Source: Candidatus Woesearchaeota archaeon (GTDB lineage Archaea; Nanobdellota; Nanobdellia; Woesearchaeales; JAADFO01). Taken from it: 41,411 nt of DNA. Below are positions 2,232-32,459 of the stretch, one piece after another. Location of the stretch: positions 1 to 41,411 of the forward strand of contig JAFGPE010000101.1 in the NCBI GenBank assembly GCA_016926055.1. Direction: 5' to 3'. The notes beneath the pieces were generated by a model. The model did not search any database. It saw only the letters and a program-made list of their open reading frames with translations, and was not told the origin of the DNA. Every line of letters starts with the position of its first letter. The first letter of the stretch is position 1. The translations under genes were made by a program, and so were the position numbers.

Positions 2232-2232
2232 A

Positions 2233-3375
2233 ATGAAAAAAAGAGAAAAATTTTTGGATTTTTCACCACCAGCAATAACAGATAAGGAGATTAATGCTGT
2301 AGTTGAGACTCTAAAAAGCGGCTGGCTTTCCATGGGGCCGAGAGTATTCGAATTTGAAAAAAAGTTCTCAGAATACATCGGTTGCAGATGTTCAGTGGCT
2401 GTAAACTCCTGCACCTCCGCATTGTTTCTTTCACTGGCGATTTCAGGAATAAATAAAGGGGACGAGGTGATAACAACCCCGTTTACTTTTGCATCGACGG
2501 CAAATGTGATATGCCATCTTGGCGCGAAGCCTGTCTTTTGCGACATTGACAAGGACACATTCAATATTAGTCCTAAGCAGATTGAATCAAAGATTACAAA
2601 AAAGACAAAGGCAATTCTTCCTGTACACTATGGAGGACAGCCATGCGATATGGAGGAGATACAGAGGATTGCGGATGAGCACGGTCTTGTGGTGGTAGAG
2701 GACGCAGCACACGCGCTTGGAGCAGAACTCAACAACAAACGAATAGGTGCTAGCGGAAACTTAACATGCTTTAGCTTCTATCCGACGAAAAACATCACCA
2801 CTGGCGAAGGTGGAATGATAACGACAAATAACAAGGAAATCGCTGACAGACTCAAGCTATTGAGGCTTCATGGAATCTCGAGCGAGGCATGGTCAAGATA
2901 TTCTAGGGGAGGAAAATGGAAATACGATGTTCTTGCTCCAGGATACAAACTTAACATGTCAGACATGAATGCTGCTGTTGGCATAGTTCAACTGGAAAGA
3001 ATAAAAGAGCTTAACCAAAAAAGAGAGGAGATTTACAATCTCTACACTAGAAAACTCTCACTATTAAATGCAATCGAGCTTCAGAAGCCAAGGGAAAATA
3101 TTAAAAGCTCATACCATCTCTTCCCGATTCTCCTGAAAAATCACAACAGGGACAGTTTTATTGATGGAATGACTGAGATGAACATTGGCACAAGCGTTCA
3201 CTTCATTCCGCTTCATCTCCAGCCATTCTACCAGAAGGAATTCGGCTACAAGGAAGGGGATTTTCCCGTTGCCGAGGACATCTATGGTAGAATAATCTCA
3301 CTCCCAATTCATCCAATGATGACAGATGGCGATGCGGAGTATGTCTGCGAGGCAATAATGCACATCCTGGGATGA
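2233..3375 (+). CDS. DegT/DnrJ/EryC1/StrS-family nucleotide-sugar aminotransferase (PglE-like)
   Basis: PLP-lysine context 'FSFYPTKNITTGEGGMITT'. ATG 2233 sits one nt after the upstream stop; the track start 2206 would overlap it. Confidence 0.85.
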   Translation: MKKREKFLDFSPPAITDKEINAVVETLKSGWLSMGPRVFEFEKKFSEYIGCRCSVAVNSCTSALFLSLAISGINKGDEVITTPFTFASTANVICHLGAKPVFCDIDKDTFNISPKQIESKITKKTKAILPVHYGGQPCDMEEIQRIADEHGLVVVEDAAHALGAELNNKRIGASGNLTCFSFYPTKNITTGEGGMITTNNKEIADRLKLLRLHGISSEAWSRYSRGGKWKYDVLAPGYKLNMSDMNAAVGIVQLERIKELNQKREEIYNLYTRKLSLLNAIELQKPRENIKSSYHLFPILLKNHNRDSFIDGMTEMNIGTSVHFIPLHLQPFYQKEFGYKEGDFPVAEDIYGRIISLPIHPMMTDGDAEYVCEAIMHILG

Positions 3376-3379
3376 AAAT

Positions 3380-4822
3380 ATGGAAAACAAATCATCTTCA
3401 GGAAAGGGCGTGTTGTACATTACCTTTTCAGAGTTGTTTTTTTACATTACCTCATACGCGACTTATTTCTTTCTTGGCAGGTCATTCGACCCAAAGGATT
3501 TCGGTATTTTTGGGATTGTTGTTTTTTTTGTTTCGATGATCAACACAGTTCTCACAACAGCATTTCAGCAGACCATATCAAAGTTTGTTTCACAGGAGCC
3601 CCATTCAGCAAAGGACATCAGAAGAAAATCCTTTCTGGCAGTCTTCATCATGAGCCTAATCCTCACTGTTCTCTACTTCAGCTTTTCAAAGCCACTTTCT
3701 TCCATTCTCCATGACGCTACCCTGGTCTCCTACATTCGATTGTCTTCTCTGCTAATCCTTCCAAGTTCGTTCTTTCATGCTTTTGTAGGCTATCTTAACG
3801 GTTTAAAGAAATTTAAGCGACAAGCGATACTTGTTATGATATACAGTGCGTTGAGATTGGGTCTTGTAATGACAATGGTCATGCTAGGTTTCTCAATCAA
3901 GGGGGTAATAATTGCATTGGTGCTAGCCCCTTTGCTCATTCTAGCAATTTCATTGCTTTCTGATATGAAGCTCTCTGAGAAAACCGTTTCAAACATAATG
4001 CCGAAAAACGTATTTAGGTTCGCCTATCCCCTTATGCTGTTCACCATACTTCTAAATCTGTTTATGAACCTTGACCTTTTCATGATCAAGTCGCTGTCAC
4101 AAACAGCTGTTGCGAACATAAACTCTGGATACTACACAGCAGCTTCCACTCTTGCGAGAGTGCCCTATTTTCTCGTAACAGGACTTTCATTTGTTCTATT
4201 CCCAATTATATCCGAATCAACATACAACAAGAAGAAAGAGCGAACATTGTCGCAGATTTCAACCTCGCTTAGGTATTGCTTGTTTGCTTTGGTTCCTGTA
4301 AGCTTCATAACAGCATCAACCACAACAGAGCTTGTGCATCTTGTTTATTCACGCAAATATCAGGGAGCAGTTATGCCTCTTTCGATTTTAGTCTTTGGCA
4401 TGGGTTTTTTCGCCCTTTTCATAATCCTGACAACTATAATCTCAGGAAGCGGCAGGCCAGTAAAATCGTTCCTGATTTCGTTGCCTTTAGTTATCATAGA
4501 TTTCGTTCTTAATGCAATTCTTATTCGAAGATATTCGCTTACAGGGGCAGCGGTGGCTACGACAGTTGCTTCGTTCTTGGGGTTTATCATTGCAGCGATA
4601 TATGTTAGCAGGAAATTCGGGGCTTTTATAAAACTAGCAAGCCTTGTCAAGATGTTGCTATCGGGTGCAATCATTTTTCTCATCAGCAGATTGTATGCGG
4701 TCTTTGGCATCTTTCTCCTGGTAAAGTATGCTGTCTTGCTTTCATTGTATGTTTCCCTCCTCATGATTCTTAAGGAAATAAATAAAAAGGATATTGACTT
4801 TTTCAGGAGTCTGTTGCCATGA
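3380..4822 (+). CDS. Wzx-like polysaccharide/oligosaccharide flippase (MOP superfamily)
   Basis: 480 aa, hydrophobic throughout with >=12 predicted helices, in a glycan operon. Confidence 0.7.
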   Translation: MENKSSSGKGVLYITFSELFFYITSYATYFFLGRSFDPKDFGIFGIVVFFVSMINTVLTTAFQQTISKFVSQEPHSAKDIRRKSFLAVFIMSLILTVLYFSFSKPLSSILHDATLVSYIRLSSLLILPSSFFHAFVGYLNGLKKFKRQAILVMIYSALRLGLVMTMVMLGFSIKGVIIALVLAPLLILAISLLSDMKLSEKTVSNIMPKNVFRFAYPLMLFTILLNLFMNLDLFMIKSLSQTAVANINSGYYTAASTLARVPYFLVTGLSFVLFPIISESTYNKKKERTLSQISTSLRYCLFALVPVSFITASTTTELVHLVYSRKYQGAVMPLSILVFGMGFFALFIILTTIISGSGRPVKSFLISLPLVIIDFVLNAILIRRYSLTGAAVATTVASFLGFIIAAIYVSRKFGAFIKLASLVKMLLSGAIIFLISRLYAVFGIFLLVKYAVLLSLYVSLLMILKEINKKDIDFFRSLLP

Positions 4823-5625
4823 ACAAAGACGAGGAATATTGGGAGGGCAGGGCAAGAAAATATGATAGACTTGCTGCAAACTATCTTGACAAGTCATTGT
4901 TTAGGCACGAGGAATCATTCCAGAGAAGAGCGATTTCCAGGCTAATAAAGAACGTTGAAGGCAAGCGTATTCTTGATGCCGGCTGCGGCACAGGCGACTG
5001 GTGCATCTATTTCGCGGATAAGGGAGCGGTTGTATCTGGTGTAGATATAAGCAAAACAATGATAGAGATAGCAAAGAGAGAGACGAAAAAACACAAATTA
5101 AAGGTGGATTATGAAGCAGTGCCGCTGGAGAAGATAGCTTTTCCAGATAAATCCTTCGACATCATCATAAGCATAACAACGTTGCAGCACATTACGAATC
5201 CGAAGAGGTTCAGGAAGGCAGTTAAGAACCTTGCAAGGGTTCTGAAAAAGAACGGCATCATTGCACTCATAGAGTTCTCCCCGCCGAAGCGGCTGAAGTC
5301 CTGGAAGGACCCCAGATATATGAGATACAAAACAAGGGGTGAGTGGATAGGAATCTTTTCAAAGGAAGGCCTGAAGCTCGTCGATGAGCAGCCAATATTT
5401 TTTATCGGCTTCAGAGTCCTGACATATCTCAAGAAATCATTTCTCTCTTCAAAGAATGATGAAAGCACTGCAGAGACTAAGCTAATGAAATCAAAACTCC
5501 GGGATATTGCATCCCTTGTACAGAGAATCATACTCTTTTTTTCAGGCTTGGTGGATTTATTGCTTTCAGGAATGCCTGTATTCAAGAAAAAAGCATATAC
5601 CTCACTTTTTATTTTCAAAAAATGA
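4819..5625 (+). CDS. class I SAM-dependent methyltransferase
   Basis: Motif I 'ILDAGCGTGDW'. ATGA start/stop overlap with the flippase. Hydrophobic C-terminal tail. Confidence 0.8.
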   Translation: MNKDEEYWEGRARKYDRLAANYLDKSLFRHEESFQRRAISRLIKNVEGKRILDAGCGTGDWCIYFADKGAVVSGVDISKTMIEIAKRETKKHKLKVDYEAVPLEKIAFPDKSFDIIISITTLQHITNPKRFRKAVKNLARVLKKNGIIALIEFSPPKRLKSWKDPRYMRYKTRGEWIGIFSKEGLKLVDEQPIFFIGFRVLTYLKKSFLSSKNDESTAETKLMKSKLRDIASLVQRIILFFSGLVDLLLSGMPVFKKKAYTSLFIFKK

Positions 5626-6794
5626 TATCGAGGGTTGGGCCGGAAACGAGCATGTTTGAATTAGCCTTGGCTCTCCTTTCGAGCTTTAAGAAAGAGGGGG
5701 TTCGTCTCGAAGAGGAGCTTTCAAAATTCTTCAGGGCAAAGAGAGCCCTCATCCTGCCAAGCGGAAGAGCAGCGCTATACTACATTCTGCGGAGTCTGCC
5801 CCAGAAAGATGTGTTTCTTCCTGCGTTTAACTGCAGGGCGGTTGTAGAGGCAGTAAAGCTGGCAAAAAAAACAATACATTATGTTGACGTGAATATGACC
5901 GATTATAACATGGATGTCAGGGATTTGAGACGAAGGATAGTGCCTAATTCGATAGTTGTTGCCACGCACCAGTTCGGCATACCTTGCGACTTGGACTCTA
6001 TTCAGAGAATATGCAGGGAAAATAATTGCACAATGATAGAGGACAACGCTGCAGCTTTCGGGGCAAAATACAAGGGCAGGCTTACAGGAACATTCGGAAA
6101 GGCTGCGATAGCCAGCTTTGAAAATACAAAAACAATAACTGCTTCTAGGGGAGGGGCAGCATTATTTCAGGACATATCCCTGTATAGAAAAGCAAAGAAG
6201 ATTTATGAGAACGAGAAAATCAGGCAGAAGCTATTGACGAGGATAATAAAAATAGTCCAGCTTGCAATATACCTTGTTTCCACAAATCACACATTTTACA
6301 GGCTCGTCATAATCCCCTACCTGAAACGAAAAGGTTATTACGGGGACAAGGGCAAATTAAAGGTTGCCAAGACCCCAATCCTCTATTGTGAAGAGATGTC
6401 CGGCTTTCAGATAAAGCTTGCGCTTTTTCAATTGAGGAGGGTTGGTAAAATCATTCATAGAAGGACAAAAATCGCTGAAAAATACCGTGAGGCATTGGCA
6501 CGAATCAAGAGTGTTTCAGTATATTCTGGAGAGATAGGTAAGAATCCTTCTTTTATGAGGTATCCGCTGCTTGTGAAAAGAGGAAGAAAGATGGATTTTT
6601 ATCTTGCTGTACTTTCGCACGGAGTTGACCTTGGATTCAGCTTTTCATATGTTTGCGGGAATTCAGTAAACTATAAATATGCAACAAAAATATCAGAGCA
6701 AATACTTAACCTGCCGATAAGGTCAACACTTTCAGATGATGAGGTGGATAAGATAATAGAAGCGATAAGAATGGCATGCGAGGAAACAAAGTGA
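5622..6794 (+). CDS. divergent DegT/DnrJ/EryC1-family PLP enzyme (second copy)
   Basis: 'MIEDNAAAFGA' and 'SFENTKTITASRGGAALF' (putative PLP lysine). ATGA overlap with the upstream gene. Confidence 0.6.
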   Translation: MISRVGPETSMFELALALLSSFKKEGVRLEEELSKFFRAKRALILPSGRAALYYILRSLPQKDVFLPAFNCRAVVEAVKLAKKTIHYVDVNMTDYNMDVRDLRRRIVPNSIVVATHQFGIPCDLDSIQRICRENNCTMIEDNAAAFGAKYKGRLTGTFGKAAIASFENTKTITASRGGAALFQDISLYRKAKKIYENEKIRQKLLTRIIKIVQLAIYLVSTNHTFYRLVIIPYLKRKGYYGDKGKLKVAKTPILYCEEMSGFQIKLALFQLRRVGKIIHRRTKIAEKYREALARIKSVSVYSGEIGKNPSFMRYPLLVKRGRKMDFYLAVLSHGVDLGFSFSYVCGNSVNYKYATKISEQILNLPIRSTLSDDEVDKIIEAIRMACEETK

Positions 6795-8170
6795 GATTTC
6801 TCTTTACACTTCCCAGGTTTGAAAAAGACACGAACCCTCCGCAAGGAATAAGCTATATTGCGGCAGTTTTGAGAAATGCTGGCCACCATGTTGAGATTCT
6901 CGACCCAACCTTCAAGGGGTTTGGCTATGCAAAAAAAGGCCTGATTGAGAAGGATTATGATGTTCTGGGAATTAGCACATATACCAAGAATCATGAGGCT
7001 GGCTTGCTGATGGCAAAGATTGCGAAGGAGCATCACCCATCGTGCATAGTTGTTTTTGGCGGAGTCCATCCAACAATCCTGAGCGAAGAAACAATCAAGG
7101 ATGACCTTGTTGACATAGTTGTTATAGGGGAGGGAGAAGAAACCCTGCTTGAGTTGGCAGAGCGGCTCGAGAAAAAAAAGGAACTCAAGGGCGTGAAGGG
7201 AATTCTATACAAAAAAAACAAAAAGGTTTTTAGAAACCCGCCAAGGCCCCTTATTGAGAACTTAGATGCCCTGCCATTTCCGGCAAGAGACCTTCTTCCG
7301 ATGCATGAGTATCTCAATGCAAAGCTTGGCAGGGCTGCTTGGGCAGTAAGGCAGCCCGCAACTTCAATGGTTTCGTCGAGAGGATGCCCTTTTCGCTGCA
7401 CCTATTGCTCTTCCCACCTGATTTTCGGGAGAAGGGTCAGGTTCAGGTCGCCCCAGAACATCATAGATGAAATAAAGTTCTTAAAAAAGGAATACGGCTT
7501 GAAGGGGCTCACCTTTGTTGATGACACCTTCACGCTTAATAAGAAATTAGTGACTGAATTCTGCGGTCTCCTGCTAAAGGAAAAAATCAAAGTTGACTGG
7601 GTTTGCAACGGAAGGGTCGATACTGTCTCAAAGGAAATGTTGCGGCTGATGAAGAAGGCAGGATGCAAGGTAATAGCCTTCGGTGTCGAGTCAGGAAACC
7701 AGAGAATACTTGATGACATACTCCACAAGGATATAACTCTTGAACGGGTCGAAAGAGCATTCAGGTGGTGCAGGGAAGTAGGGATAAAGACAGATGCATA
7801 CTTCATGCTTGGCATCCCCGGAGAGACCTTGGCAGATATGAAACAATCCATACGCTTTGCAAAGAAAATAAAGGCAGATGTTGCGAATTTTGCCGTGACA
7901 AATCCTTTGCCGAAAACAGAGCTTTACGATATCGCAAAAAAATACGGAAAGATAACTGCTAGGCGCTACAGTGACTTCGATTACATGAAACGGTCTGTTT
8001 TTGTGTCGGATACATTGAATCCCAGACTGATAGAGAAGATGCAGAGGCAGGCAAACAGAAGGTTTTATCTAAACATAGGATATGTCTGGAGGCAGCTGTT
8101 CTCCATAAGAAGCCTCTCTGATTTAAGAAATAAGTTCAATGGCTTTTTAATGGTGTTGAAGAGACAATGA
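6791..8170 (+). CDS. B12-binding (class B) radical SAM enzyme, paralogue A
   Basis: N-terminal B12-type Rossmann ('DVLGISTYT...VVFGGVHPT') and CX3CX2C 'SRGCPFRCTYC'. GTG 6791 overlaps the upstream TGA and aligns with the N-termini of paralogues B and C. Alternative ATG at 6776. Confidence 0.85.
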   Translation: MRFLFTLPRFEKDTNPPQGISYIAAVLRNAGHHVEILDPTFKGFGYAKKGLIEKDYDVLGISTYTKNHEAGLLMAKIAKEHHPSCIVVFGGVHPTILSEETIKDDLVDIVVIGEGEETLLELAERLEKKKELKGVKGILYKKNKKVFRNPPRPLIENLDALPFPARDLLPMHEYLNAKLGRAAWAVRQPATSMVSSRGCPFRCTYCSSHLIFGRRVRFRSPQNIIDEIKFLKKEYGLKGLTFVDDTFTLNKKLVTEFCGLLLKEKIKVDWVCNGRVDTVSKEMLRLMKKAGCKVIAFGVESGNQRILDDILHKDITLERVERAFRWCREVGIKTDAYFMLGIPGETLADMKQSIRFAKKIKADVANFAVTNPLPKTELYDIAKKYGKITARRYSDFDYMKRSVFVSDTLNPRLIEKMQRQANRRFYLNIGYVWRQLFSIRSLSDLRNKFNGFLMVLKRQ

Positions 8171-8183
8171 TTTCTTAAGAAAT
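8170..8183. terminator. perfect 14-nt palindrome spanning the two convergent stop codons
   Basis: 'atttcttaagaaat' lies between and over the stops of 6791..8170 (+) and 8175..9623 (-). A terminator function is a guess. Confidence 0.2.
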
Positions 8184-9623
8184 AAACCTTCTTGCCACCG
8201 GTCGAAAAACAAATCCGGGATGCTTCAGAAAAATCCTGAACATCATCAGCCACTTAAGCGGGGATGTGCTTGCGAGAACTCTTCCAAACACGCTCACCAT
8301 GATTCTAGACCATCTTTCAGAGCGCTTTCGGTAAAGATAGCGAAGAACTTTCTTCGGGATAAATGGAATCTGTGCAAGCTGGATAATCCATTCTCCCATG
8401 GAAATCTTCTTCTTATGAACGCGCGTATCCCCTCCCATGGTGATAGAAATACCCCTTCTGTGAGCTTCTTCAGTCAATACATATCTCGGAAAGAATGTGA
8501 GATAGAACATGTTCACTGTAAAGGGATGTGGGAGGCTCAAGACAGTGTCAACGGTCTCAGAAACATCTTGCTCATCTTCAAAAGGATTTTCAGTTATTAC
8601 ATCATAGGTAACCATGATTCCTTTCTTGGAAAATGCTCGTGCCAGAGAGATTAGATTTTCTTTGTTGAAATAGCGATGAAAAAGCTTTGAGGTTCTGGGC
8701 GAAGCACTCTGTATGCCGATGGAAATCGAAACGCACTTTGCTTTTTGCAAAACCTCTGCTACTCTGTCTAAATCCATCCCCTTCAGGGTTATGGGTGTGG
8801 CGAGGCAGCTGAACGGTAAGTTAATCTTCTTTTTGTAACTTTTGAGAAATGCCACGAGCCAGCTGTAGTCAGTGAGGAAATCCTCGTCTTCGAACATCAC
8901 CGTATCGATTCTATCGCGAACATGGCGAAGCTCTGCAAGCACAACCGAGGATTTCCTCCTTCTTACAAATTTTCTTCCAAATTTTCCACTGAATCTCTGA
9001 AGAAGAGGATTTACGCAGTAGGCGCAGCTATATGGGCAGCCGAACGAGGTGAATGTCTGATAGCGCACCACTGGACCTACCTTGCGAGGTACTTCTGAGG
9101 TTTTCTTTATTTTACCTTTTACAATGACCGTATCCTCGATGATACCATATCTCGGATAAGGGAACTTTGTTACGTCTTCAGTGAACCAGAAGGCATTGTC
9201 TCTTGGAAAAACCCCTTTCGGGGGCGTCTTTCCTTTCATTAGCTGCTCCACCAGTGAAAGAAGAGATTCTTCACCGGCTCCCCTTATTATGAAATCCGCG
9301 AAAGTTGCACATTCTTCAGGCATGATTGTTGGATGGATGCCACCCACAACAACGAATGCTCCGCTCTTCTTGACAGCCTTTGCTAACTTTCTTGTATCTT
9401 CAAGATAGGGAGTCATGAAGCTGATTCCGACAACATCTCCTTTCTGTGGATGAAAGTCATTGACAAATGAAGCAATGGTTGCACTTGGCATTTTGCGCTT
9501 GACATTAGCGTATCGTTCTAAAAAATAAAGGGAGACCTTATGTCCCTTTGATCTCAGGAATTCGGCAATATGCCTGATTCCCCATGCAATCTCGTTTTCA
9601 AAAGCTACCAGTGCAATTCTCAT
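8175..9623 (-). CDS. B12-binding (class B) radical SAM enzyme, paralogue B (divergent)
   Basis: 'VVGISFMTP...VVVGGIHPT' and CX3CX2C 'SFGCPYSCAYC'. Confidence 0.8.
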   Translation of the reverse strand: MRIALVAFENEIAWGIRHIAEFLRSKGHKVSLYFLERYANVKRKMPSATIASFVNDFHPQKGDVVGISFMTPYLEDTRKLAKAVKKSGAFVVVGGIHPTIMPEECATFADFIIRGAGEESLLSLVEQLMKGKTPPKGVFPRDNAFWFTEDVTKFPYPRYGIIEDTVIVKGKIKKTSEVPRKVGPVVRYQTFTSFGCPYSCAYCVNPLLQRFSGKFGRKFVRRRKSSVVLAELRHVRDRIDTVMFEDEDFLTDYSWLVAFLKSYKKKINLPFSCLATPITLKGMDLDRVAEVLQKAKCVSISIGIQSASPRTSKLFHRYFNKENLISLARAFSKKGIMVTYDVITENPFEDEQDVSETVDTVLSLPHPFTVNMFYLTFFPRYVLTEEAHRRGISITMGGDTRVHKKKISMGEWIIQLAQIPFIPKKVLRYLYRKRSERWSRIMVSVFGRVLASTSPLKWLMMFRIFLKHPGFVFRPVARRFIS

Positions 9624-9645
9624 ACGACAAAAATTACATATGGCA

Positions 9646-9653
9646 TATATAAA
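9646..9653 (-). promoter_or_regulatory. TATA-like box for 8175..9623
   Basis: Plus-strand 'tatataaa', centred ~26 nt upstream of the ATG at 9623. Confidence 0.35.
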
Positions 9654-9674
9654 GATTTCGAAAAGAAACAGAAG

Positions 9675-10844
9675 TTATCTTCTTATCTTTTTATAGAGTG
9701 AAAAGTACTTCTCCGCGGCACTTTTCGCTGAAAACCTCTCAACAGAGAGCTTTCTCAGGTTTACTTTCAATTCATCTCTTAGTTTTTTTTCACTTAGAAT
9801 CTTAATTATTTTATCAGAATAACCTTTAACATCACCATACTTTGCCAATAGTCCTGTTTTGCCGTCCATTACAACAAGGTCTGTATCTTTCACATCTGTC
9901 GCAACAACTGCAGAACCACATGCTGCAGCCTCGAAAAGTGCAGTTGAAGAGTAGTTTGTGACAGGCGAAGCGAATAGGACAGCATCTGCAAGGTTATAGT
10001 AGTCAGGCAAATCGACGTTGTTGATGTTGCCAAGAAACCTCACATTATTTTCAATCCCCAGCCCCTTTACAGCAGCCCTTAACTTTTCTTCTTCAGGGCC
10101 GGTTCCTGCCAGAAGCAAGAGTACATCTGGAAATCTCTTTCTTAGTTCCTTAACGCACCTGAATATGAACTTATGTCCTCTTATCCCCCTTAGCATTGCA
10201 ACCATTAGGAGAATTTTTCTACCCTTGAATTTCTTTATCAAATCAGAAGAAGGTTTTTTCGGCTTAAAAAAATCAACATTCGCGCCATTTGGAATATGAA
10301 TCCTTTTTTTTGTTCTGCAGCCAATCTCATCCATGTATGAGAACATCTCGCTGTTGTCATCAGAGACAGCATAATCTGCCTTGTCAAGCGAGTTCCTTAT
10401 CATTATCCTCAATATAGGAATCTTCCTTCCAATGCGCATATCAGAACCAAGAAGCGTGACGATGCTTTTCTTTTTCATCCTTCTTGCAAGCATAACAGCA
10501 ATTATGCCTCCTGGCATAGCCCAGCAGCCGTGGATTATTTCCGGATTAAATCTTTTTGCGACCCTTCTGCCGGTGTTAAGCATCTTCAGAAAATAATCCA
10601 TCCATCCAACCATATTCAGAAAGGTTATCTTTCCAAAATTAATGTCCCTCGCTCTGAAAGTGTGGACTTTTATTCCCTGAAAGAGGATTATGTTTTTCTT
10701 CGACTTGTTATTTGAACTCTTGGAAGTTACGATCTCAACATCAATGCCTTTTTTCTTATACAGCTTCATGAAGTTATGAAGATATATTCCCCGATAATCC
10801 TTCTTTGTTTGCGGATAGCTCGATGAGATTACAAGAACTTTCAT
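9675..10844 (-). CDS. GT4-family (GT-B) glycosyltransferase
   Basis: 'MKVLVISSSYP' N-terminus and 'LFEAAACGSAVVATDV' donor-binding motif. ATG 10844 follows the upstream stop by 2 nt; the track start 10979 overlaps the upstream gene. Confidence 0.75.
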   Translation of the reverse strand: MKVLVISSSYPQTKKDYRGIYLHNFMKLYKKKGIDVEIVTSKSSNNKSKKNIILFQGIKVHTFRARDINFGKITFLNMVGWMDYFLKMLNTGRRVAKRFNPEIIHGCWAMPGGIIAVMLARRMKKKSIVTLLGSDMRIGRKIPILRIMIRNSLDKADYAVSDDNSEMFSYMDEIGCRTKKRIHIPNGANVDFFKPKKPSSDLIKKFKGRKILLMVAMLRGIRGHKFIFRCVKELRKRFPDVLLLLAGTGPEEEKLRAAVKGLGIENNVRFLGNINNVDLPDYYNLADAVLFASPVTNYSSTALFEAAACGSAVVATDVKDTDLVVMDGKTGLLAKYGDVKGYSDKIIKILSEKKLRDELKVNLRKLSVERFSAKSAAEKYFSLYKKIRR

Positions 10845-10846
10845 TT

Positions 10847-11734
10847 TTATTTCCTGAACATGTCTGCCAATAATCCGAATAGCCATATCTGGACAGCAAC
10901 GCTGATTAAAAGCACTGTGAGCATCACCCTTGGCAGTGCTCCGACGGTGCCTGTTGTCAGAAGGGAATAGAGAATCCATGTGCCGAGAGCAAACCCTGTG
11001 AGAAAGAAAACCAGTCCTATGTAACTGAAAAACTTCAGCGGCTCATAGTCACGGTATATTCTTACAAGGTTAATCCAAGCCTTTAACGCATATTCAAACG
11101 GGCTGCTCATTAATCTGCTTTTGTCACGCCTCTTCCTGAAATATATGGGCACTTCCGCTATTCTGAACTTTTGTCTTACTGCCCTGATAATCTGCTCTTG
11201 GGTGTATGTGTGGGTAGACATCACCTTAACTTTCTCAGCAACGTCTTTTGTGAAAGCCCTGAACCCGGTCTGGGCGTCGCTTATCATGACTCTTGTGATG
11301 TTCGACACCAGTTTCGAGAATGCCATATTCCCAATTCTTTTTATTAGCGACATTGACTCAATCTTTCCTTTGAACCTGCTGCCTAAGACAAGGTCATATC
11401 CTTCATCAATCTTCCTCAGGAGCTTTGGAATCTCCTTTGCAACATACTGCCTGTCTGCATCAATATGGACTATCACACCGGCATTAAGCTCGAGGCATTT
11501 CTGGAGCTCAGTCCTGAATGTTTCAGCTAATCCTTGATTCGTCTGGTGGCTAAACACAATGGCTCCTGCTTTCTTTGCGACAGCAGCAGTTGAATCAGTG
11601 CTTCCGTCGTCAACAACAAGAATCTGATAATCATGGCCCTTTTTCAGGGCATCATCTATCTCCCTTATTACAGCACCTATTGTTCTTTCTTCATTATATG
11701 CAGGGATGCTGATGATAATTTTGCTGTTTTTCAT
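10847..11734 (-). CDS. GT2 polyprenyl-phosphate sugar synthase (GtrB/DPM1/ArnC-like) with C-terminal membrane anchor
   Basis: 'ISIPAYNEE', 'VVDDGSTDST', 'HIDADRQY' (DxD), and two C-terminal hydrophobic helices. Confidence 0.8.
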   Translation of the reverse strand: MKNSKIIISIPAYNEERTIGAVIREIDDALKKGHDYQILVVDDGSTDSTAAVAKKAGAIVFSHQTNQGLAETFRTELQKCLELNAGVIVHIDADRQYVAKEIPKLLRKIDEGYDLVLGSRFKGKIESMSLIKRIGNMAFSKLVSNITRVMISDAQTGFRAFTKDVAEKVKVMSTHTYTQEQIIRAVRQKFRIAEVPIYFRKRRDKSRLMSSPFEYALKAWINLVRIYRDYEPLKFFSYIGLVFFLTGFALGTWILYSLLTTGTVGALPRVMLTVLLISVAVQIWLFGLLADMFRK

Positions 11735-11757
11735 ATCATGACAAGAACCTGACAGAG

Positions 11758-11770
11758 TTTAAATATATTT
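11758..11770 (-). promoter_or_regulatory. TATA-like box for the 11734..9675 unit
   Basis: 'tttaaatatattt' centred ~30 nt upstream of the ATG at 11734. Confidence 0.3.
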
Positions 11771-11780
11771 CGCAATAAAC

Positions 11781-11788
11781 TATTTAAA
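11781..11788 (+). promoter_or_regulatory. TATA-like box for 11817..13619
   Basis: 'tatttaaa' centred ~32 nt upstream of ATG 11817. Confidence 0.3.
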
Positions 11789-11816
11789 CAGAGTTCTTTT
11801 TCATGGCTTTGATAAA

Positions 11817-13619
11817 ATGAGCGGGATAACAATACTCCTATTCTTCATTTACACATATGGATTGGGCTATTCTCTGCTCAGGTTTGTGAAGGAGGAAGAG
11901 GCTTTCTGGGAGAGGCAGATTATGAGGGCAGGTATAGGCCTTGGAGCATTTATTGTTCTGGGGCTTTTGATGAATCTCTTAAGAATACCTCTCGACTGGA
12001 AAATATTCCTTGTCCTGAGCTTGGCTTTCCCCGTCTATGACTTGATAAAAAAGAAAGGAATGACAACTCCTGATTTAAGACCGACAAAAAACAATCTCAT
12101 TATCCTTGTTGTCCTCGTTTTGTTTTTTGCTACACTTCACATGTACGCTAAAGGCTCATTTGTTTATCCCTACTTTGAGGATGATGACCCGTGGCACCAT
12201 GCCGCGGGCATGAAGTATGTGGCCATTGAAAAGAATCTTTTTCCGCCTTTGAATACTTTGATGTACATCGACCCTTATCCTCCGGCATACGATATGGTGA
12301 TGGGCATACTGAACCAGACATCCTCGTCTGTAATGTGGACTCTGAAGTTCTTTAACTCGCTAATAATATCGTTGAGCATAGTTTTCTTCTACTTCTTTGC
12401 AAAACGCTTCATGAACAATAGCAGAAGGGCACTATTTTCAGCGTTTGCCCTGGCCGCAATACCTTGCTTCCTGAGTCATTTCATATGGTCAATGGCACTC
12501 ACAGTGCCGATGTATTTTGTGGCGTTCTACTCAATAGAGATGATGAAGCGTGATAGAAAATGGCTTATTCCATCAATAATAATGAGTGCGGCAACTCTTA
12601 CGATATCGCCTTCCCACAGCGCTTACTTTGGAATATTGCTGTTCTTTTATGCAATAACAAGATGCGTTCTGGAGAAAAAGATTGTCAAGAACCTTTTCTT
12701 GGTTGGGATATTCGGAATTGTGCTTTCCCTTTTCTTGTGGTGGGGACCAATGATGGTTAAGTACGGAGTATCAGGCTTTTTCAGCTCGACAATAAATGTT
12801 CAGGGAGGGGACACCATTTTTTCTGTGGCAGGCTCAGCAGACAGGATATACTCGTTTAATGACTTTTTTATTGCTAAAAAGCAGAACATGATAAACAATC
12901 CAATAGGAGTAGGGATTTTCCTGTCAACCCTTGCCATAATCTCAATGATATCCGTATTATCAAAATGGAAATCCCTGAAAAAAGAAAGCAATCACTGGAT
13001 TGCCATCGGAGCAGCATGGTTTCTCATCATGCTATATTTTGTGAATGCAACCCCTTATCCTGTGAAGATAACCCCTTTTAGGGCATGGATGGTTTTCGCG
13101 ATTCCTGTAGCAATTGTTTCAGCAGAAGGCCTAGATTTCCTGACGGGTATTGGAAAAAAAGCAGGCATTCCGCCGTTAATAATAATTGCATTGGCTGTAT
13201 TCGGAATAATAATGACATCTGCTGTCCAGAAGTATGCGGTCAACACCGCAAATTGGTCTCCGGGCCTGGGCTGGTACTCATATCCTGAAGTATTGAGTTA
13301 TGAATACCTAAGGGAGCTCCCATACAATGCTGCAGTCTTCACTTTTACAGACAATCTTTTCGTCATAAGCTATGACAAATACAGCTGCGAATGGTGCCCC
13401 GATATAGATGAATACAGAAAGACAGCTTTTGATAGGACAGCTGTCGAGCTCAATTCATGGCTGAAGAGCAAAAAATATGAATACCTGCTTATAGATGGCA
13501 GAACGCTGAGGAATTTTGGAATAAACGAAACAACGATAAAAGCCCAAGAACTTGTTTCTTCAGATTTATTTATCCCCGTTAAGCAGTCTGAATCGTTTCT
13601 GGCATTAAGGGTTGTCTAG
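11817..13619 (+). CDS. putative GT-C fold membrane glycosyltransferase (ArnT/PMT/STT3-like architecture)
   Basis: 600 aa, >=10 hydrophobic helices, acidic loop 'YFEDDDPWHH' after the early helices, soluble C-terminal ~120 aa. Divergent from a polyprenyl-P-sugar synthase. No WWDYG motif seen. Confidence 0.5.
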   Translation: MSGITILLFFIYTYGLGYSLLRFVKEEEAFWERQIMRAGIGLGAFIVLGLLMNLLRIPLDWKIFLVLSLAFPVYDLIKKKGMTTPDLRPTKNNLIILVVLVLFFATLHMYAKGSFVYPYFEDDDPWHHAAGMKYVAIEKNLFPPLNTLMYIDPYPPAYDMVMGILNQTSSSVMWTLKFFNSLIISLSIVFFYFFAKRFMNNSRRALFSAFALAAIPCFLSHFIWSMALTVPMYFVAFYSIEMMKRDRKWLIPSIIMSAATLTISPSHSAYFGILLFFYAITRCVLEKKIVKNLFLVGIFGIVLSLFLWWGPMMVKYGVSGFFSSTINVQGGDTIFSVAGSADRIYSFNDFFIAKKQNMINNPIGVGIFLSTLAIISMISVLSKWKSLKKESNHWIAIGAAWFLIMLYFVNATPYPVKITPFRAWMVFAIPVAIVSAEGLDFLTGIGKKAGIPPLIIIALAVFGIIMTSAVQKYAVNTANWSPGLGWYSYPEVLSYEYLRELPYNAAVFTFTDNLFVISYDKYSCEWCPDIDEYRKTAFDRTAVELNSWLKSKKYEYLLIDGRTLRNFGINETTIKAQELVSSDLFIPVKQSESFLALRVV

Positions 13620-15046
13620 TTCTTCTTGGGAAGGAATGATTTGACTAGTTCGATTTCTTCATTCTTGAAACACCTTGTCATAAGCAATATCAAGAAATAA
13701 AGCGCCATTGCGAGAGGGATTATTATCAAAATATGCAGATTCCTGAGATAATACACAAAAAATGCCATGGCTGCCCCTGCAATCAGAGGTTTATAGCTTA
13801 ACTTGAGAAGATTCAGGCCGAAGCGGTTTTTCTGACAGAACATGAGAAGCAAAGCGAAGTTAATAATTTCTGTAATTACAGTTGCAACGGCAGCACCCAT
13901 GTAGCTGTACTTTGGTATGAACACCAGATTAAGTGTGATGTTTGCCAAAACACATACGCCTGCAGAAAGAGTGAATAGCTTCTCCTTTCCTATTGAATAA
14001 AGAAGATATCCCATGATGTAGTTTATGAAGACGAAAAACTCGGCCCATATCAATATCCTGAGAACACCTGTTGAGTTCAAAAAGCTGTCCTTGTATATGA
14101 AATATATTATCCTGTCTGCGAGAAGTGTGCATCCTATCGCCATAGGTATAGCCAGCATAATTAAGTACAGGACGATTTTTCCAAACAGCACTTTTAACAT
14201 TTTCCTGTTTTCCTTAAATAAGCGGGACATTACAGGATATGTGACGAATATGACTAGCTGCGGTATGAAGCCCAGAGCTTCCACAAGCTTGTATGCAGCG
14301 CTAAACCAGCCAACAGCTTCATAACTTTTCATCATGGAGAGCATTACTGTGCTAATTTTAAAATAAAAAATCACAAACAACGTCGTAAACCAAAAGGGAA
14401 TGGAAACCTTCACCATCCTTTTCATAAAGGGAATATCGAAGCAGAACCTTGCCTTTACAAACCTCTTCGAGGCAATTCTGGCAGCGGCCAGGCTCGAGAT
14501 TAGCTGAGAGAAAACAAGTACAAGCAAAAACAGCAAAAGACTTTTCCATTTATATAGAACGAGAATCCCCGCGCCGAATGCAATACTCCTTTCTATTACA
14601 ATCAGCAGAGAAACATACTGCATCTTCTCAAATGCCCTGAACAGCGTCACAAAAAGATTCGACAAGTTTTCAAACAAAATAACCGTTCCTGCCAGAAGAA
14701 CAATCAACCGTACATCGTTTGTTTTTTTGACAAAAAATGTGCTTATGAAAGTTATTGCAAGCATAATGACCATTAGGCTTAGTTTCAGGGTGAATACATT
14801 TGTAAAATATTTTTCAGCTTTTTTATGATTCTTGGCAATTTCCCTTATTGCCCAGTTCGTCGTCCCGAGATCCGAGAAGATTGAGAAAATATATGCGAAC
14901 GCGAATGCAAAAGAATACTTCCCCAGGCCAACATCTCCAAGGTATCTTGCAACAAAGATTATCAGGAAAAATGACAAAACCTTGCCATATAGTTCTGAGA
15001 AAAACATGAAGCCGGTATTTTTTGCAATTTCCTTGCTTAATGCCAT
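13616..15046 (-). CDS. Wzx-like flippase / polysaccharide biosynthesis protein (MOP superfamily), second copy
   Basis: 476 aa polytopic membrane protein. Its stop overlaps the stop of 11817..13619 in 'CTAG'. Confidence 0.7.
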   Translation of the reverse strand: MALSKEIAKNTGFMFFSELYGKVLSFFLIIFVARYLGDVGLGKYSFAFAFAYIFSIFSDLGTTNWAIREIAKNHKKAEKYFTNVFTLKLSLMVIMLAITFISTFFVKKTNDVRLIVLLAGTVILFENLSNLFVTLFRAFEKMQYVSLLIVIERSIAFGAGILVLYKWKSLLLFLLVLVFSQLISSLAAARIASKRFVKARFCFDIPFMKRMVKVSIPFWFTTLFVIFYFKISTVMLSMMKSYEAVGWFSAAYKLVEALGFIPQLVIFVTYPVMSRLFKENRKMLKVLFGKIVLYLIMLAIPMAIGCTLLADRIIYFIYKDSFLNSTGVLRILIWAEFFVFINYIMGYLLYSIGKEKLFTLSAGVCVLANITLNLVFIPKYSYMGAAVATVITEIINFALLLMFCQKNRFGLNLLKLSYKPLIAGAAMAFFVYYLRNLHILIIIPLAMALYFLILLMTRCFKNEEIELVKSFLPKKN

Positions 15047-15080
15047 TTACCCATCTCTCAAAAGGCTTTTTCAGCCTTTG

Positions 15081-16490
15081 TCATTCAGTCCTGCCCTTGT
15101 CCATCTTCAGCACGTGCCTCAAACCGACTGCCCTGAGAACGAAGTTCTTGAACCCCATCAATGAGCGTATCTGCTTCAGCCTGTGGATGATGAAACTGGG
15201 ATGCTTGATGTACTGCCACCTCATGAATCTCAGAAGCTCCCTGTATGCATAGCCAAATGCCTCGACTCTTTCTTCTGCTGGAAAATCGTCAGTTTCAAAA
15301 ATGGGCTGCGGCTTGTCTGTAAGGTGAGGACTCCATTTGTCAACATCTTTGATTAGCCATCTTCCGTTCTTGCTAATCCAATCATATATCTCTGTTCCAG
15401 GATAAGGAACAAGCATTCCAAAATAAGCTCCTCCGTTCAACTCAAGCTTTTTCATGAATGCAACTGAATCCTTGACAGTTTCAAACGTATCGCCCGGGTT
15501 ACCTATCATGAAGAATCCGCCAACAATGAGGCCAGCGTCCTTTGCCCATTTTACAGCCTTTTCAACCTGCTTAAGCGTAATCCCTTTCTTCATCATGTTA
15601 AGAACCCTCTGGTTCCCTGATTCTATTCCATAGTTCACTCTCTCGCAGCCTGCCCTCCTCATCTTCTTAAGAAGTCTTGGCGTTACCCTGTCCACCCGTA
15701 TGCCCACAGAGCATTCCCATTTGACATCAAGATTCTTTTTCAGCAGGATGTCACAAAAACGCTCGGCATTTTTCATGTCCAGAGTGAAAGTGTCATCAAG
15801 TATGTAAAACATGTCAGGATGATATTTCTTATTCAGGGTTTCAATCTCCCTTATTATGTTTTCAGGGCTCCGGTGGCGCCATTTGCTTCCGTGAACCGCC
15901 TTTGTGCAATACACGCACTGAAACGGGCAGCCCCTTCCTGTTACCACGCCCATCTGGCTGTATCTTGAAAGTTCATATAGCTCTCGAGGAGGAAACGGAA
16001 GAGCGTCAAGATCGTCTATTGGTGGCCTTGGCGGATTAACAACTATTTCGCCGTCTTTCCTGTATATCAAACCCTTGATTCCTTCAGGTTCTTTGTTGTC
16101 TTCCAAGGCTTCAACAAGTTCCATAATGGTATACTCCCCTTCACCGTAAACACCAAAATCGATAAACTTATTTTTTTCCAAAGCCTTTTCTTTTACTATG
16201 GAGACATAGGCTCCTCCAACCACCGTTTTGGCAGAGGTATGCTTCTTCGCTAGCTCAACAACCCTGTTGGCTTCTTTGGATGTAAATGTTAGGGCAGTAA
16301 CACCGATAAGGTCGAATTTATTCTTCTTGAACAGTTTGACTAGTTGGCTAAATCCCATATCAGAAGCCTTCATATCTATGATTCTCACGCTATGGTTTTT
16401 TTTCATAAGCATGGCTGCCATATACCCTATTCCCAAAGGGGGGTGCTTCATCTCAGCCTCGCATAAAGGACTTATAAACAAAACATTCAT
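15081..16490 (-). CDS. B12-binding (class B) radical SAM enzyme, paralogue C (close to A)
   Basis: 'GRGCPFQCVYC'. 'DDLDALPFPPREL' matches 'ENLDALPFPARDL' of paralogue A. The ATG at 16490 ('MNVLFIS') aligns with the paralogues. The track start 16508 is GTG. Confidence 0.85.
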   Translation of the reverse strand: MNVLFISPLCEAEMKHPPLGIGYMAAMLMKKNHSVRIIDMKASDMGFSQLVKLFKKNKFDLIGVTALTFTSKEANRVVELAKKHTSAKTVVGGAYVSIVKEKALEKNKFIDFGVYGEGEYTIMELVEALEDNKEPEGIKGLIYRKDGEIVVNPPRPPIDDLDALPFPPRELYELSRYSQMGVVTGRGCPFQCVYCTKAVHGSKWRHRSPENIIREIETLNKKYHPDMFYILDDTFTLDMKNAERFCDILLKKNLDVKWECSVGIRVDRVTPRLLKKMRRAGCERVNYGIESGNQRVLNMMKKGITLKQVEKAVKWAKDAGLIVGGFFMIGNPGDTFETVKDSVAFMKKLELNGGAYFGMLVPYPGTEIYDWISKNGRWLIKDVDKWSPHLTDKPQPIFETDDFPAEERVEAFGYAYRELLRFMRWQYIKHPSFIIHRLKQIRSLMGFKNFVLRAVGLRHVLKMDKGRTE

Positions 16491-16534
16491 TTCTATCCCC
16501 TCTTCCACCTAAAAAAACAGATTTGTTTTTAAAT

Positions 16535-16557
16535 GTTATCTCCTATAAAAAGATAAC
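16535..16557. promoter_or_regulatory. 6-bp inverted repeat bracketing an A/T box in a divergent intergenic region
   Basis: 'gttatc-tcctataaaaa-gataac' lies between the radical SAM C gene and the CDP-alcohol transferase gene. Confidence 0.25.
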
Positions 16558-16564
16558 TTTAAAA
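16558..16564 (+). promoter_or_regulatory. TATA-like box for 16589..17302
   Basis: 'tttaaaa' centred ~28 nt upstream of ATG 16589. Confidence 0.3.
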
Positions 16565-16588
16565 GCTGGAATAATTCTAGAGAAAAAA

Positions 16589-18876: not shown

Positions 18877-18878
18877 TT

Positions 18879-19652: not shown

Positions 19653-19684
19653 CCTAAAATCTCCAGTACCCTGCTTGTATCACT

Positions 19685-32437: not shown

Positions 32438-32459
32438 ACTGGATAACAATCTCTCCCTA

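Follow-up and report, generated by a model that had tools for sequence, protein, structure and literature searches.

Three predicted class-B radical SAM tailoring enzymes in a surface-glycan locus of a woesearchaeal genome

A surface-glycan locus of ~31 kb in a Candidatus Woesearchaeota MAG (DPANN) holds three radical SAM genes, here called A, B, and C. We think it rather probable that they encode class-B radical SAM tailoring enzymes of a flippase-dependent surface-glycan pathway, with C-methylation of the predicted substrates as the likeliest reaction. A role of these enzymes in glycan or glycolipid tailoring is well supported. The domain architecture, the synteny with related loci, and the translational coupling were observed directly. 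In what follows, the window is the whole analysed stretch of 41,411 nucleotides (contig JAFGPE010000101.1).

The radical SAM trio

In the window, exactly three genes code for a protein with a B12-binding Rossmann domain at its N terminus and, after it, a CX3CX2C radical SAM barrel, and tblastn of the window yielded copies at A, B, and C and no more. In all three, both domains score above the Pfam gathering scores applied (32.1 bits for B12-binding, PF02310, and 29.5 bits for Radical_SAM, PF04055):

6791..8170, + strand: radical SAM A, class-B architecture, 459 aa from GTG 6791 (PF02310 78 bits; PF04055 119 bits)
8175..9623, - strand: radical SAM B, class-B architecture, 482 aa, last gene of the GT2-GT4-B operon (PF02310 63 bits; PF04055 52 bits)
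15081..16490 (alternative 15081..16508), - strand: radical SAM C, class-B architecture, 469-aa form on record (PF02310 76 bits; PF04055 99 bits)

A sequence-only reading of this DNA had reported three B12-type radical SAM genes at these positions, and the ORFs were indeed found there, together with the motifs it gave (SRGCPFRCTYC in A, SFGCPYSCAYC in B, and GRGCPFQCVYC in C). The NCBI call for A is the 459-aa form with the GTG 6791 start; an alternative ATG is at 6776. The convergent orientation of A and B is also as described, with stop codons 4 nt apart (TGA-TTTC-TTA).

A and C share 37% identity over 447 aa (E 3e-93), compared with 26% for A and B and 23% for C and B, in line with the earlier view of B as the more divergent protein. 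Two of the blocks said to be shared by A and C, LDALPFP.R.L and DDTFTL, are common to both, while the third reads VESGNQRIL in A and IESGNQRVL in C. To call A and C clearly close paralogues was, however, an overstatement, as neither is the nearest relative of the other. By its sequence, C falls in the same broad subfamily as A, and the two appear to be members of one subfamily rather than recent duplicates, since A has orthologues at 49-64% identity, while the best relative of C anywhere is at 44% and no orthologue of C was found in the databases. None of the three proteins reaches the curated cut-off of any named NCBIfam family (BchE, HpnJ, MgmA, PhpK, AprD4, and others), which rules out function transfer by orthology; by the same models, none of them falls in a housekeeping clade.

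Gene neighbourhoods and related loci

The genes preceding A are, in this order:

804..2231, + strand: PglF/CapD-like nucleotide-sugar 4,6-dehydratase, first gene of the A operon (Polysacc_synt_2, E 7e-106)
2206..3375, + strand: PseC/ArnB-like sugar 4-aminotransferase (PF01041, E 2e-139; TIGR03588 PseC 405 bits, slightly below the cut-off of 423.5)
3380..4822, + strand: Wzx/MurJ-type flippase 1 (Polysacc_synt_3, Polysacc_synt, MurJ)
4819..5625, + strand: class I SAM methyltransferase (Methyltransf_25/11)
5622..6794, + strand: DegT2, a divergent DegT/DnrJ/EryC1-type PLP enzyme (Pfam PF01041, E 7e-46)

DegT2 is a conserved, translationally coupled partner of A. Its TGA stop (6792-6794) overlaps the GTG of A (6791), giving a 4-nt overlap, and it keeps the PLP lysine (FENTK aligned to FNGNK of 7b0m). 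A is a member of a defined orthogroup, with about 45 proteins at no less than 49% identity, and in the seven places examined translational coupling of its orthologues to a DegT-type PLP enzyme is usual. Orthologues of DegT2 (36-51% identity) lie beside A orthologues in loci L003, L004, L085, and L092 and two genes off in L090; the arrangement with DegT2 directly upstream and a 4-nt overlap is found in the window, L003, L004, and L092. A class I methyltransferase gene is at most two genes from the A orthologue in L004, L085, L090, and L091. Orthologous GT4 (45% identity in L003), GT2 (64% in L003, 41% in L004, and 38% in L091), and flippase genes (flippase 1, 52% in L003) share loci with A orthologues. 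The 126 immediate neighbours of more distant relatives of A (31-41% identity) include 24 radical SAM, 14 GT2, 6 GT4-type, and 3 PMT_2 genes.

The partners of B and C, and the remaining gene of the region, are:

9675..10979, - strand: GT4 glycosyltransferase (Glycos_transf_1, Glyco_trans_4_2)
10847..11734, - strand: GT2 glycosyltransferase with a C-terminal membrane segment (Glycos_transf_2)
11817..13619, + strand: 600-aa hydrophobic, apparently multi-pass membrane protein, oriented divergently from the GT2 gene
13616..15046, - strand: Wzx-type flippase 2, downstream of C (Polysacc_synt, E 3e-41)

The true start of the GT4 gene is probably an internal ATG near 10844, and GT2 is predicted to be of the polyprenol-phosphate sugar synthase type. 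The 600-aa membrane protein is a candidate GT-C, polymerase, or ligase; it has no Pfam or NCBIfam match even at E 0.1, and similarity to it is undetectable in the same-position proteins of L004 and L091.

B represents a rare clade that occurs in archaea and bacteria with GT4 and methyltransferase genes. At 50% identity or above, no more than about 12 full-length orthologues were found, and among 1.84 billion representatives there is one full-length 50%-identity cluster, after which the scores fall from 829 to 363 bits. A GT4 gene is beside or near the B orthologues in L093 and L094. The former, which is bacterial, has the order MT-B-MT-GT4-LPG_synthase_TM, and the latter is a glycan locus. Another B orthologue (P0128) is a fusion with a class I methyltransferase, and a CPR bacterium carries a B-like gene within a heptose-type sugar operon.

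The operon partners named in the sequence-only reading (aminotransferases, a methyltransferase, and a flippase for A; GT4 and GT2 for B; flippase 2 for C) were thus recovered, and its link to glycan tailoring is upheld by the relatives: all seven places of A orthologues are sugar or glycan loci, and in all three places of the B group (the window, L093, and L094) the radical SAM gene is next to GT4 and methyltransferase genes. Of the two relatives of C examined, one is outside any glycan locus, which counts against our main explanation. The radical tailoring had also been described as unusually heavy, which has to be tempered, as three to five radical SAM genes per locus are the norm in related DPANN glycan loci; such numbers are also seen in one CPR bacterium. 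The pattern of three B12-type radical SAM genes in a glycan cluster recurs in related uncultivated microbes.

LPG_synthase_TM genes adjoin relatives of A, B, or C in L092, L093, and L095, and in one protein (P0075) LPG_synthase_TM and an A-like radical SAM enzyme are truly fused. The presence of fused or adjacent LPG_synthase_TM in relatives points to membrane-lipid substrates over soluble nucleotide sugars and counts against our main explanation.

The cobalamin domain and the closest known systems

The AF2 models of A (pLDDT 92.6) and B (pLDDT 87.7) comprise an intact Rossmann domain of five strands and five helices plus the barrel, and degeneracy of the B12 domain, considered in the sequence-only reading, is not seen in either. 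Both models agree with the 'class I' architecture defined for OxsB, TsrM, TokK, and QCMT (PMC12931638). Judged by alignment, A appears to have a genuine cobalamin domain at its N terminus. In particular, the A-family profile, starting at residue 3-55, can be aligned to the N-terminal parts of OxsB, TokK, TsrM, and CysS, taking in the stated lower-axial residues of the first three, whereas its alignment with AprD4 covers only residues 151-419. Similarly, the NCBIfam models of BchE, HpnJ, PhpK, BzaD, and HpnR align to A from about residue 20, and that of AprD4 only from residue 140. In the A family, strand 3 is followed by a conserved, hydrophobic loop (G-[IVF]-S-x-[YF]-T-M-N), with Met opposite Trp76 of TokK in 28 of 40 members, and Lys, not Met, in A of the window. 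Still, architecture alone does not prove cobalamin use, since AprD4 and ArsL belong to the same B12-radical-SAM similarity network and do not bind cobalamin (PMC12931638). DPANN are not among the lineages listed with the full cobalamin pathway (PMC11459464), and the window contains no cobalamin uptake gene.

GenK/GenD1 (gentamicin) and MoeK5 (moenomycin), listed as characterised methylases (PMC12931638), are cobalamin-dependent radical SAM C-methyltransferases with a class-B architecture like that of A, B, and C. Their substrate is a sugar carbon, the sugar being lipid-linked for MoeK5, and their clusters, like this locus, carry aminotransferases, class I methyltransferases, and glycosyltransferases. 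However, they serve secondary-metabolite pathways of actinomycetes and not a DPANN cell-surface glycan locus, and the likeness lies in architecture, type of substrate, and gene context. MgmA/QCMT (9ccb), a cobalamin-dependent glutamine C-methyltransferase from archaea that is about 450 aa long and counts as a 'class I' B12 radical SAM enzyme, heads the Foldseek matches of A (E 1.6e-24; the other top matches are AprD4, TsrM, CysS, TokK, and OxsB) and the PDB sequence matches of C (E 2e-25). Its substrate is a protein, methyl-coenzyme M reductase; its context is unlike this locus, and the window showed no MCR genes. The respective model, TIGR04014, yields 132 and 145 bits, below its cut-off of 360. 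Among the curated models, BchE (TIGR02026; 235 and 199 bits) and HpnJ (TIGR03471; 222 and 196 bits) score highest for A and C, with cut-offs of 481-578 bits; the window has no hopanoid or bacteriochlorophyll context.

Predicted pathway and alternative explanations

In the proposed pathway, A and the PLP enzyme DegT2 encoded upstream would catalyse consecutive steps on a nucleotide-activated keto or amino sugar, itself made by the dehydratase and the aminotransferase heading the same operon. B would pair with GT2 and GT4 of its operon, its probable substrate being either a lipid-linked sugar or what GT4 produces, and C may be an extra, lineage-specific tailoring enzyme. Reductive cleavage of SAM would generate a 5'-deoxyadenosyl radical that abstracts hydrogen from an unactivated sugar carbon, and the likeliest end would be methyl transfer from methylcobalamin, producing a C-methylated or branched sugar. 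The substrate class is predicted, and cobalamin-dependent C-methylation by A, B, and C is putative, the likeliest of several possible reactions.

DesI (DegT-family) and DesII (radical SAM) of the desosamine pathway are an established pair for deoxygenation. The PLP aminotransferase and its radical SAM partner work one after the other on a single nucleotide sugar, much as we suggest for DegT2 and A; DesII, unlike A, is not known to have a B12-type domain. The pair also sets a precedent for another scheme, in which A, and perhaps B, would be a cobalamin-independent radical dehydratase or deaminase: DegT2 would add an amino group, and the radical SAM enzyme would eliminate the neighbouring hydroxyl or amine to give a deoxygenated sugar. 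AprD4 (6fd2), the apramycin 1,2-diol dehydratase, acts on the diol of an amino sugar without cobalamin despite its place in the B12-radical-SAM network (PMC12931638), and it ranks best or second-best among the structural matches of both A and B and is at or near the top by sequence: it is the best PDB sequence match of A (E 1e-26; family profile E 2e-47), has the highest TM-score to A (0.76), and ranks first for B. We nevertheless consider this scheme unlikely, as only the barrel and the C-terminal portion are similar, the N-terminal domain of A aligns to cobalamin-binding enzymes instead, the AprD4 model NF033070 gives 118 (A), 27 (B), and 73 (C) bits against a cut-off of 500, and no AprD3-like reductase gene is coupled to A. 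Quite unlikely, in our view, is modification of lipids or lipid-linked intermediates in place of nucleotide sugars, the substrate being a polyprenol or dolichol carrier, a glycolipid head group, or a membrane lipid, with MoeK5, GrsA/B, Gmm, and HpnP/R as known parallels. The LPG_synthase_TM fusion and neighbours described above favour it, as do TIGR04072 ('lipid biosynthesis B12-binding/radical SAM'), which is among the best NCBIfam matches of B, and the fact that the archaeal B12-binding radical SAM enzymes of known function act on GDGT lipids (PMC11214058). Yet the PLP enzyme coupled to A is of a soluble, sugar type, and all lipid-family models score far under their cut-offs. Moreover, DPANN archaea are mostly devoid of lipid biosynthesis. 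For B this explanation overlaps with ours, since modifying a lipid-linked sugar would still be glycan tailoring.

Cobalamin could also serve beyond methyl transfer, in contraction, rearrangement, or cyclisation of the sugar, as in HpnJ, OxsB, or BchE. The ranking of BchE and HpnJ, the annotation of HpnJ as acting on a glucosamine-derived head group, and the presence of OxsB among the structural matches of A are consistent with such chemistry, but it seems improbable given that the BchE and HpnJ scores are less than half of the curated cut-offs (481 and 578 bits) and that the A family has a hydrophobic lower-face loop, like that of radical methylases, while those of OxsB and TsrM are hydrophilic. 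The MgmA matches, along with moderate scores from ApyD and RiPP C-methyltransferase models, might suggest a protein or peptide substrate, such as an S-layer protein or a RiPP; this is very improbable, as these scores are under the cut-offs, no precursor-peptide, protease, or RiPP-transport genes are among the called genes of the window and related loci, and the genes conserved nearby encode sugar enzymes and glycosyltransferases. As tailoring enzymes of a surface-glycan pathway, A, B, and C would be a good lead for enzymology rather than a new system.

The glycan locus and its radical SAM genes

The window is the complete contig of 41,411 nt, with an even GC content (0.37-0.44), and a dense block of sugar genes spans positions 804 to ~31,740. 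This block comprises genes encoding a PglF-like 4,6-dehydratase, a PseC/ArnB-like aminotransferase and a second, divergent DegT-type enzyme, two Wzx-type flippases, class I methyltransferases, five GT4-type glycosyltransferases and one GT2, two SDR epimerase/dehydratases, one UDP-sugar dehydrogenase, one PIG-L deacetylase, and several nucleotidyltransferases. We regard a locus as directing flippase-dependent surface-glycan synthesis if nucleotide-sugar enzymes, several glycosyltransferases and a Wzx-type flippase are clustered together, as they are here. No polymerase (Wzy), ligase or oligosaccharyltransferase (AglB) defining the acceptor was recognized in the window by Pfam or NCBIfam models. 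The genes considered below are as follows.

3380-4822, +, flippase 1
5622-6794, +, DegT2, the divergent DegT/DnrJ/EryC1-type PLP enzyme
6791-8170, +, A, radical SAM protein with an N-terminal B12-type domain
8175-9623, -, B, same architecture
9675-10979, -, GT4 glycosyltransferase
10847-11734, -, GT2 glycosyltransferase
15081-16490, -, C, same architecture as A and B

The sequence-only reading had correctly described the three radical SAM ORFs with their lengths and CX3CX2C motifs, which are visible in the sequence itself, as well as the convergence of A and B, with four bases between the stop codons, and the operon partners (two aminotransferases, a methyltransferase and a flippase for A; GT4 and GT2 for B; the second flippase for C). 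B is the last gene of the GT2-GT4-B operon. All three proteins match Radical_SAM PF04055 (119, 52 and 99 bits for A, B and C, respectively; gathering cut-off 29.5) and B12-binding PF02310 (78, 63 and 76 bits; cut-off 32.1), and tblastn yielded no fourth copy of this type in the window. The same reading had taken A and C for close paralogues, and this did not hold: they are 37% identical over 447 residues, whereas orthologues of A elsewhere reach 49-64% and the best relative of C 44%, none above this value being found among 5.8 billion clusters. A and C thus belong to the same large subfamily rather than stem from a recent duplication. B is more distant, with 26% identity to A and 23% to C.

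Several other features of the window deserve mention. A 600-aa hydrophobic protein (11817-13619), apparently a multi-pass membrane protein, is divergently transcribed from GT2 and has no Pfam or NCBIfam family matches. In two other loci, which hold orthologues of A (L004 and L091), the corresponding place beside the orthologous GT2 is taken by unannotated membrane proteins of 500-520 aa, with no detectable similarity to the 600-aa protein; the latter may be a GT-C type transferase, polymerase or ligase. The GT4 ORF is probably over-long at its 5' end: it runs 133 nt into the GT2 gene, and with a start at the internal ATG near 10844 (MKVLVISS...) the two genes would be 2 nt apart. Similarly, the ORF at 16523-17302 is probably over-long: from its TTG start, only 14 nt remain to C in its longest form, and a more plausible start is an ATG near 16589. 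In two places, a long ORF on one strand overlaps another on the opposite strand: 31868-32500(-) and 32202-33584(+) in the first, 38782-39489(-) and 38810-39655(+) in the second. Either pair probably includes a spurious ORF, and the translation of 38782-39489(-) is of low complexity and looks non-coding.

A phosphonate-type ABC transporter, PhnD/PhnC/PhnE (18043-20717), is embedded within the glycan locus and flanked by two nucleotidyltransferases, for which the best PDB match is LicC, the CTP:phosphocholine cytidylyltransferase; for the one at 17299-18000, the second-best match is the PntC 2-aminoethylphosphonate cytidylyltransferase fusion (6pd1). The neighboring ORFs encode a protein with a weak CDP-alcohol phosphatidyltransferase-like match (16523-17302), a cytidylyltransferase-like protein (21505-22047), and a methyltransferase (22047-22805). 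Together, these genes look like a module that scavenges, activates and attaches a phosphonate or phosphocholine-type head group. The start of C lies ~100 nt from this module, on the other strand, and C, sitting beside LicC/PntC-like genes and PhnCDE, might act in a Fom3-like manner on a cytidylylated phosphonate head group.

Family placement and the cobalamin-type domain

Few large enzyme groups are as poorly characterized as the class B radical SAM enzymes. None of A, B and C reached a curated NCBIfam cut-off; in particular, the equivalog cut-offs for BchE, HpnJ, HpnR, MgmA, BzaD, PhpK/Sden_1168, TsrM-type, ladderane-lipid, ArsL, KedN5, and ApyD were not attained. The best model for A and C is BchE (235 and 199 bits, cut-off 481), and HpnJ gives 222 and 196 bits (cut-off 578). 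For B, the top models are the uncharacterized TIGR04013 and the "ladder lipid" TIGR04072, at 87 bits each (cut-offs 251 and 360). The housekeeping identities BchE, HpnJ, MgmA, BzaD, and MiaB/RimO were therefore rejected. The possibility, raised by the sequence-only reading, that the proteins would fall into housekeeping clades was not borne out, as all three score below every curated cut-off and hence belong to unnamed clades. The A orthogroup contains ~45 proteins, chiefly encoded in MAGs of DPANN lineages, Diapherotrites and Woesearchaeota among them, while B is rare, with ~12 full-length orthologues: in an exhaustive search of 1.84 billion representatives, the B HMM retrieved one full-length cluster at 50% identity (829 bits), the next full-length match at 363 bits, and then a continuum at 220-270 bits.

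The AlphaFold2 models of A and B (pLDDT 92.6 and 87.7) contain a five-strand, five-helix Rossmann domain followed by the radical SAM barrel; in A, the elements are E2-6/H18-29/E33-37/H43-53/E58-62/H65-81/E86-90/H98-102/E109-111/H115-127, and the pattern in B is the same. This is the "class I" architecture of OxsB, TsrM, TokK, and QCMT/MgmA (2026 review, PMC12931638). A degenerate B12-type domain, which the earlier reading had allowed for, is thus not what the models of A and B contain.

Still, architecture alone does not prove the use of cobalamin, since AprD4 and ArsL sit inside the B12-radical-SAM similarity network and bind no cobalamin (PMC12931638). AprD4/DesII-like deoxygenation without cobalamin is one of the main rivals to a cobalamin-dependent reaction. 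Foldseek could not serve as an arbiter: for A, MgmA (E 1.6e-24) and AprD4 (E 2.4e-24) are tied, with the top TM-score belonging to AprD4 (0.76), and for B, AprD4 comes first. Against the model of the AprD4-family diol dehydratases (NF033070), A, B and C score 118, 27 and 73 bits, short of the curated cut-off of 500, and these alignments begin only at residues 140, 192 and 163, respectively. The profile of the A family behaves in the same way: its alignments with OxsB, TokK, TsrM, and CysS already start in the N-terminal domain, but that with AprD4 (PDB) covers only residues 151-419.

The loop after strand 3 bears the lower-axial residue in characterized enzymes (TokK Trp76, TsrM Arg69, OxsB Asn186), and a hydrophobic lower face of cobalamin is the stated hallmark of radical methylases (PMC12931638). 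In the A family, this loop carries a conserved G-[IVF]-S-x-[YF]-T-M-N motif. By sequence alignment only, TokK Trp76 corresponds to column 66 of the family, which is Met in 28 of 40 members and Lys in A itself, and TsrM Arg69 and OxsB Asn186 correspond to column 64, Tyr or Phe in 29 of 40. From these sequence comparisons at the level of the family, we favor the view that the N-terminal domain is a genuine cobalamin domain; the loop, given the Lys, does not extend this to A itself.

Gene neighborhoods of the relatives

Orthologues of A lie inside a sugar locus in all seven places examined, namely in the window and in L003, L004, L085, L090, L091, and L092; a metagenome search with A by itself gave one of these loci, L085. 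DegT2 or its orthologue (36-51% identity) directly precedes A, overlapping it by 4 nt, in the window, L003, L004, and L092; it is adjacent to A in L085 and two genes off in L090, and L091 has a SPASM radical SAM gene instead of DegT2. At the junction in the window, GAGGAAACAAAGTGA, the DegT2 stop overlaps the GTG start of A, which is preceded by GAGGA. DegT2 retains the PLP lysine. Other components recur as well: the A-orthologue loci contain orthologues of GT4 (45% identity, in L003), GT2 (64%, 41% and 38%), and flippase 1 (52%), and a class I methyltransferase is usually no more than two genes away from A.

Each of these loci has three to five radical SAM genes. Class B genes number four in L004, at least four in L090, and three in L091, together with one SPASM enzyme. 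Paralogues other than A are 28-36% identical between loci and not orthologous, so the radical SAM complement differs from locus to locus, much as, by analogy, glycosyltransferases vary between serotypes.

Glycan contexts are also seen for relatives of B. In L093, an orthologue (10001-11503, 53-55% identity) is found in the order MT-B-MT-GT4-LPG_synthase_TM on a 547-kb contig with the bacterial hallmark genes PriA, Fmt, Def, and RsmB; in L094, the orthologue is surrounded by a glycan locus that includes PMT_2, GT2, GT4, methyltransferase, and DegT genes. A 29% relative from the CPR bacterium Candidatus Nealsonbacteria (L097, GCA_026396115.1) belongs to a long sugar operon (1352-17217) comprising heptose-type precursor genes (SIS isomerase, GHMP kinase, HAD phosphatase, nucleotidyltransferase), a flippase, the B-like class B radical SAM gene, two SPASM radical SAM genes, five methyltransferases, and GT2. 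The layout of this operon parallels that of the DPANN loci. For C, one 44% relative is located in a locus with three radical SAM genes, GT2, GT4, PMT_2, and LPG_synthase_TM, and a 42% relative is not within a glycan context.

The B orthogroup thus spans archaea and, with the L093 copy, bacteria. The contig with the DegT2-A cassette of L092 (8832-11389) also has a PorV-like gene and a gene for a giant protein of 9118 aa, and may be bacterial. The B copy beside bacterial genes and the L092 cassette together suggest inter-domain transfer of tailoring cassettes.

Domain fusions were found: a B orthologue (P0128) and a C-like protein (P0215) are each fused to a class I methyltransferase, and in P0075 (811 aa, Logan contig, 41% identical to A) LPG_synthase_TM (residues 9-296) is fused to an A-like B12-binding radical SAM protein. 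An apparent fusion of a B-like protein with GT4 (P0136) was discarded as an artefact of overlapping Rossmann folds, since the Glyco_transf_4 match falls within the B12 Rossmann region (residues 17-96).

More distant relatives of A come from Bathyarchaeota, Aenigmatarchaeota, Chloroflexota, Omnitrophota, Planctomycetota, and other groups. The matches listed from GTDB genomes were all of this distant kind (31-41% identity) and did not include the contig of the window, so they served to count neighbors rather than to compare orthologue synteny.

Immediate neighbors (n = 126) of 31-41% identical relatives of A, among the matches listed, in 80 species-representative genomes (GTDB)
Further radical SAM genes: 24/126 (18 of the 24 with a B12 domain)
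GT2: 14/126
GT4-type: 6/126
Class I methyltransferases: about 6/126
PMT_2: 3/126

Glycosyltransferases and radical SAM paralogues make up more than one third of these neighbors, among the matches listed. By general expectation rather than a computed background rate, such a share far exceeds what is usual for these families in a genome. Scattering outside glycan loci, which the sequence-only reading had named as an adverse outcome, therefore does not apply to the A and B orthogroups, and applies in part to the distant family.

Proposed roles and their significance

The evidence best supports a role for A, B and C in the tailoring of a surface glycan made by a flippase-dependent pathway. In this reading, A and DegT2 would act on a keto or amino sugar in nucleotide-activated form, B would work with GT2 and GT4, plausibly on a lipid-linked sugar, and C would be a lineage-specific addition. 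The likeliest chemistry, by analogy, would be cobalamin-dependent C-methylation, because methylases form the majority of characterized class B enzymes (PMC12931638) and the N-terminal domain resembles that of true B12 enzymes.

Next to deoxygenation, two other readings are main rivals. A cobalamin reaction other than methylation, of the HpnJ, OxsB or BchE type, is in line with BchE being the best model for A and C, with both scores less than half the cut-off. Alternatively, the substrates could be lipid carriers or glycolipids. The P0075 fusion and the LPG_synthase_TM genes adjoining relatives in L092, L093, and L095 hint at lipid-linked substrates or membrane-associated action; the sugar contexts of A and B speak for glycan tailoring. 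Protein modification is far less likely.

We also consider, as a tentative and rather doubtful generalization, that ultra-small, host-dependent lineages (DPANN and, for the B-like clade, CPR) build their surface glycans via arrays of cobalamin-dependent radical SAM enzymes, including the DegT2-A cassette. Searches of the open-access literature found no precedent for such enzymes, whether class B or cobalamin radical SAM, in archaeal N-glycosylation, O-antigen, capsule or DPANN glycans, which is weak evidence. The archaeal class B precedents that we found are for GDGT lipids (PMC11214058) and methyl-coenzyme M reductase. To our knowledge, all known sugar-directed class B members belong to antibiotic pathways. 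These include GenK, GenD1, MoeK5, and Fms7 (PMC12931638), and A, B and C would therefore add enzymes of a known type in a new biological setting. DPANN do not appear in a list of archaeal groups with the full cobalamin pathway (PMC11459464), so that, speculatively, cobalamin dependence would imply scavenging.

If the reading as arrays is true, class B radical SAM chemistry would gain its first role in primary envelope glycan synthesis. The resulting sugars, C-methylated or remodeled by other radical reactions, would be of a kind that only antibiotics are known to contain so far, and envelope construction would depend on cobalamin scavenged from hosts or neighbors. If, on the other hand, the proteins are ordinary deoxygenases, only a routine refinement of annotation follows. 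Three uncharacterized clades are defined, and A with its coupled PLP partner offers a specific gene pair on which in vitro reconstitution could be tried. Glycan loci with multiple radical SAM genes are recurrent in DPANN archaea and present in a CPR bacterium, with counterparts in many uncultivated anaerobes. If these enzymes are cobalamin-dependent, genome-reduced symbionts would need external B12 for the decoration of their surface, and cofactor exchange would be tied to cell-cell interaction.
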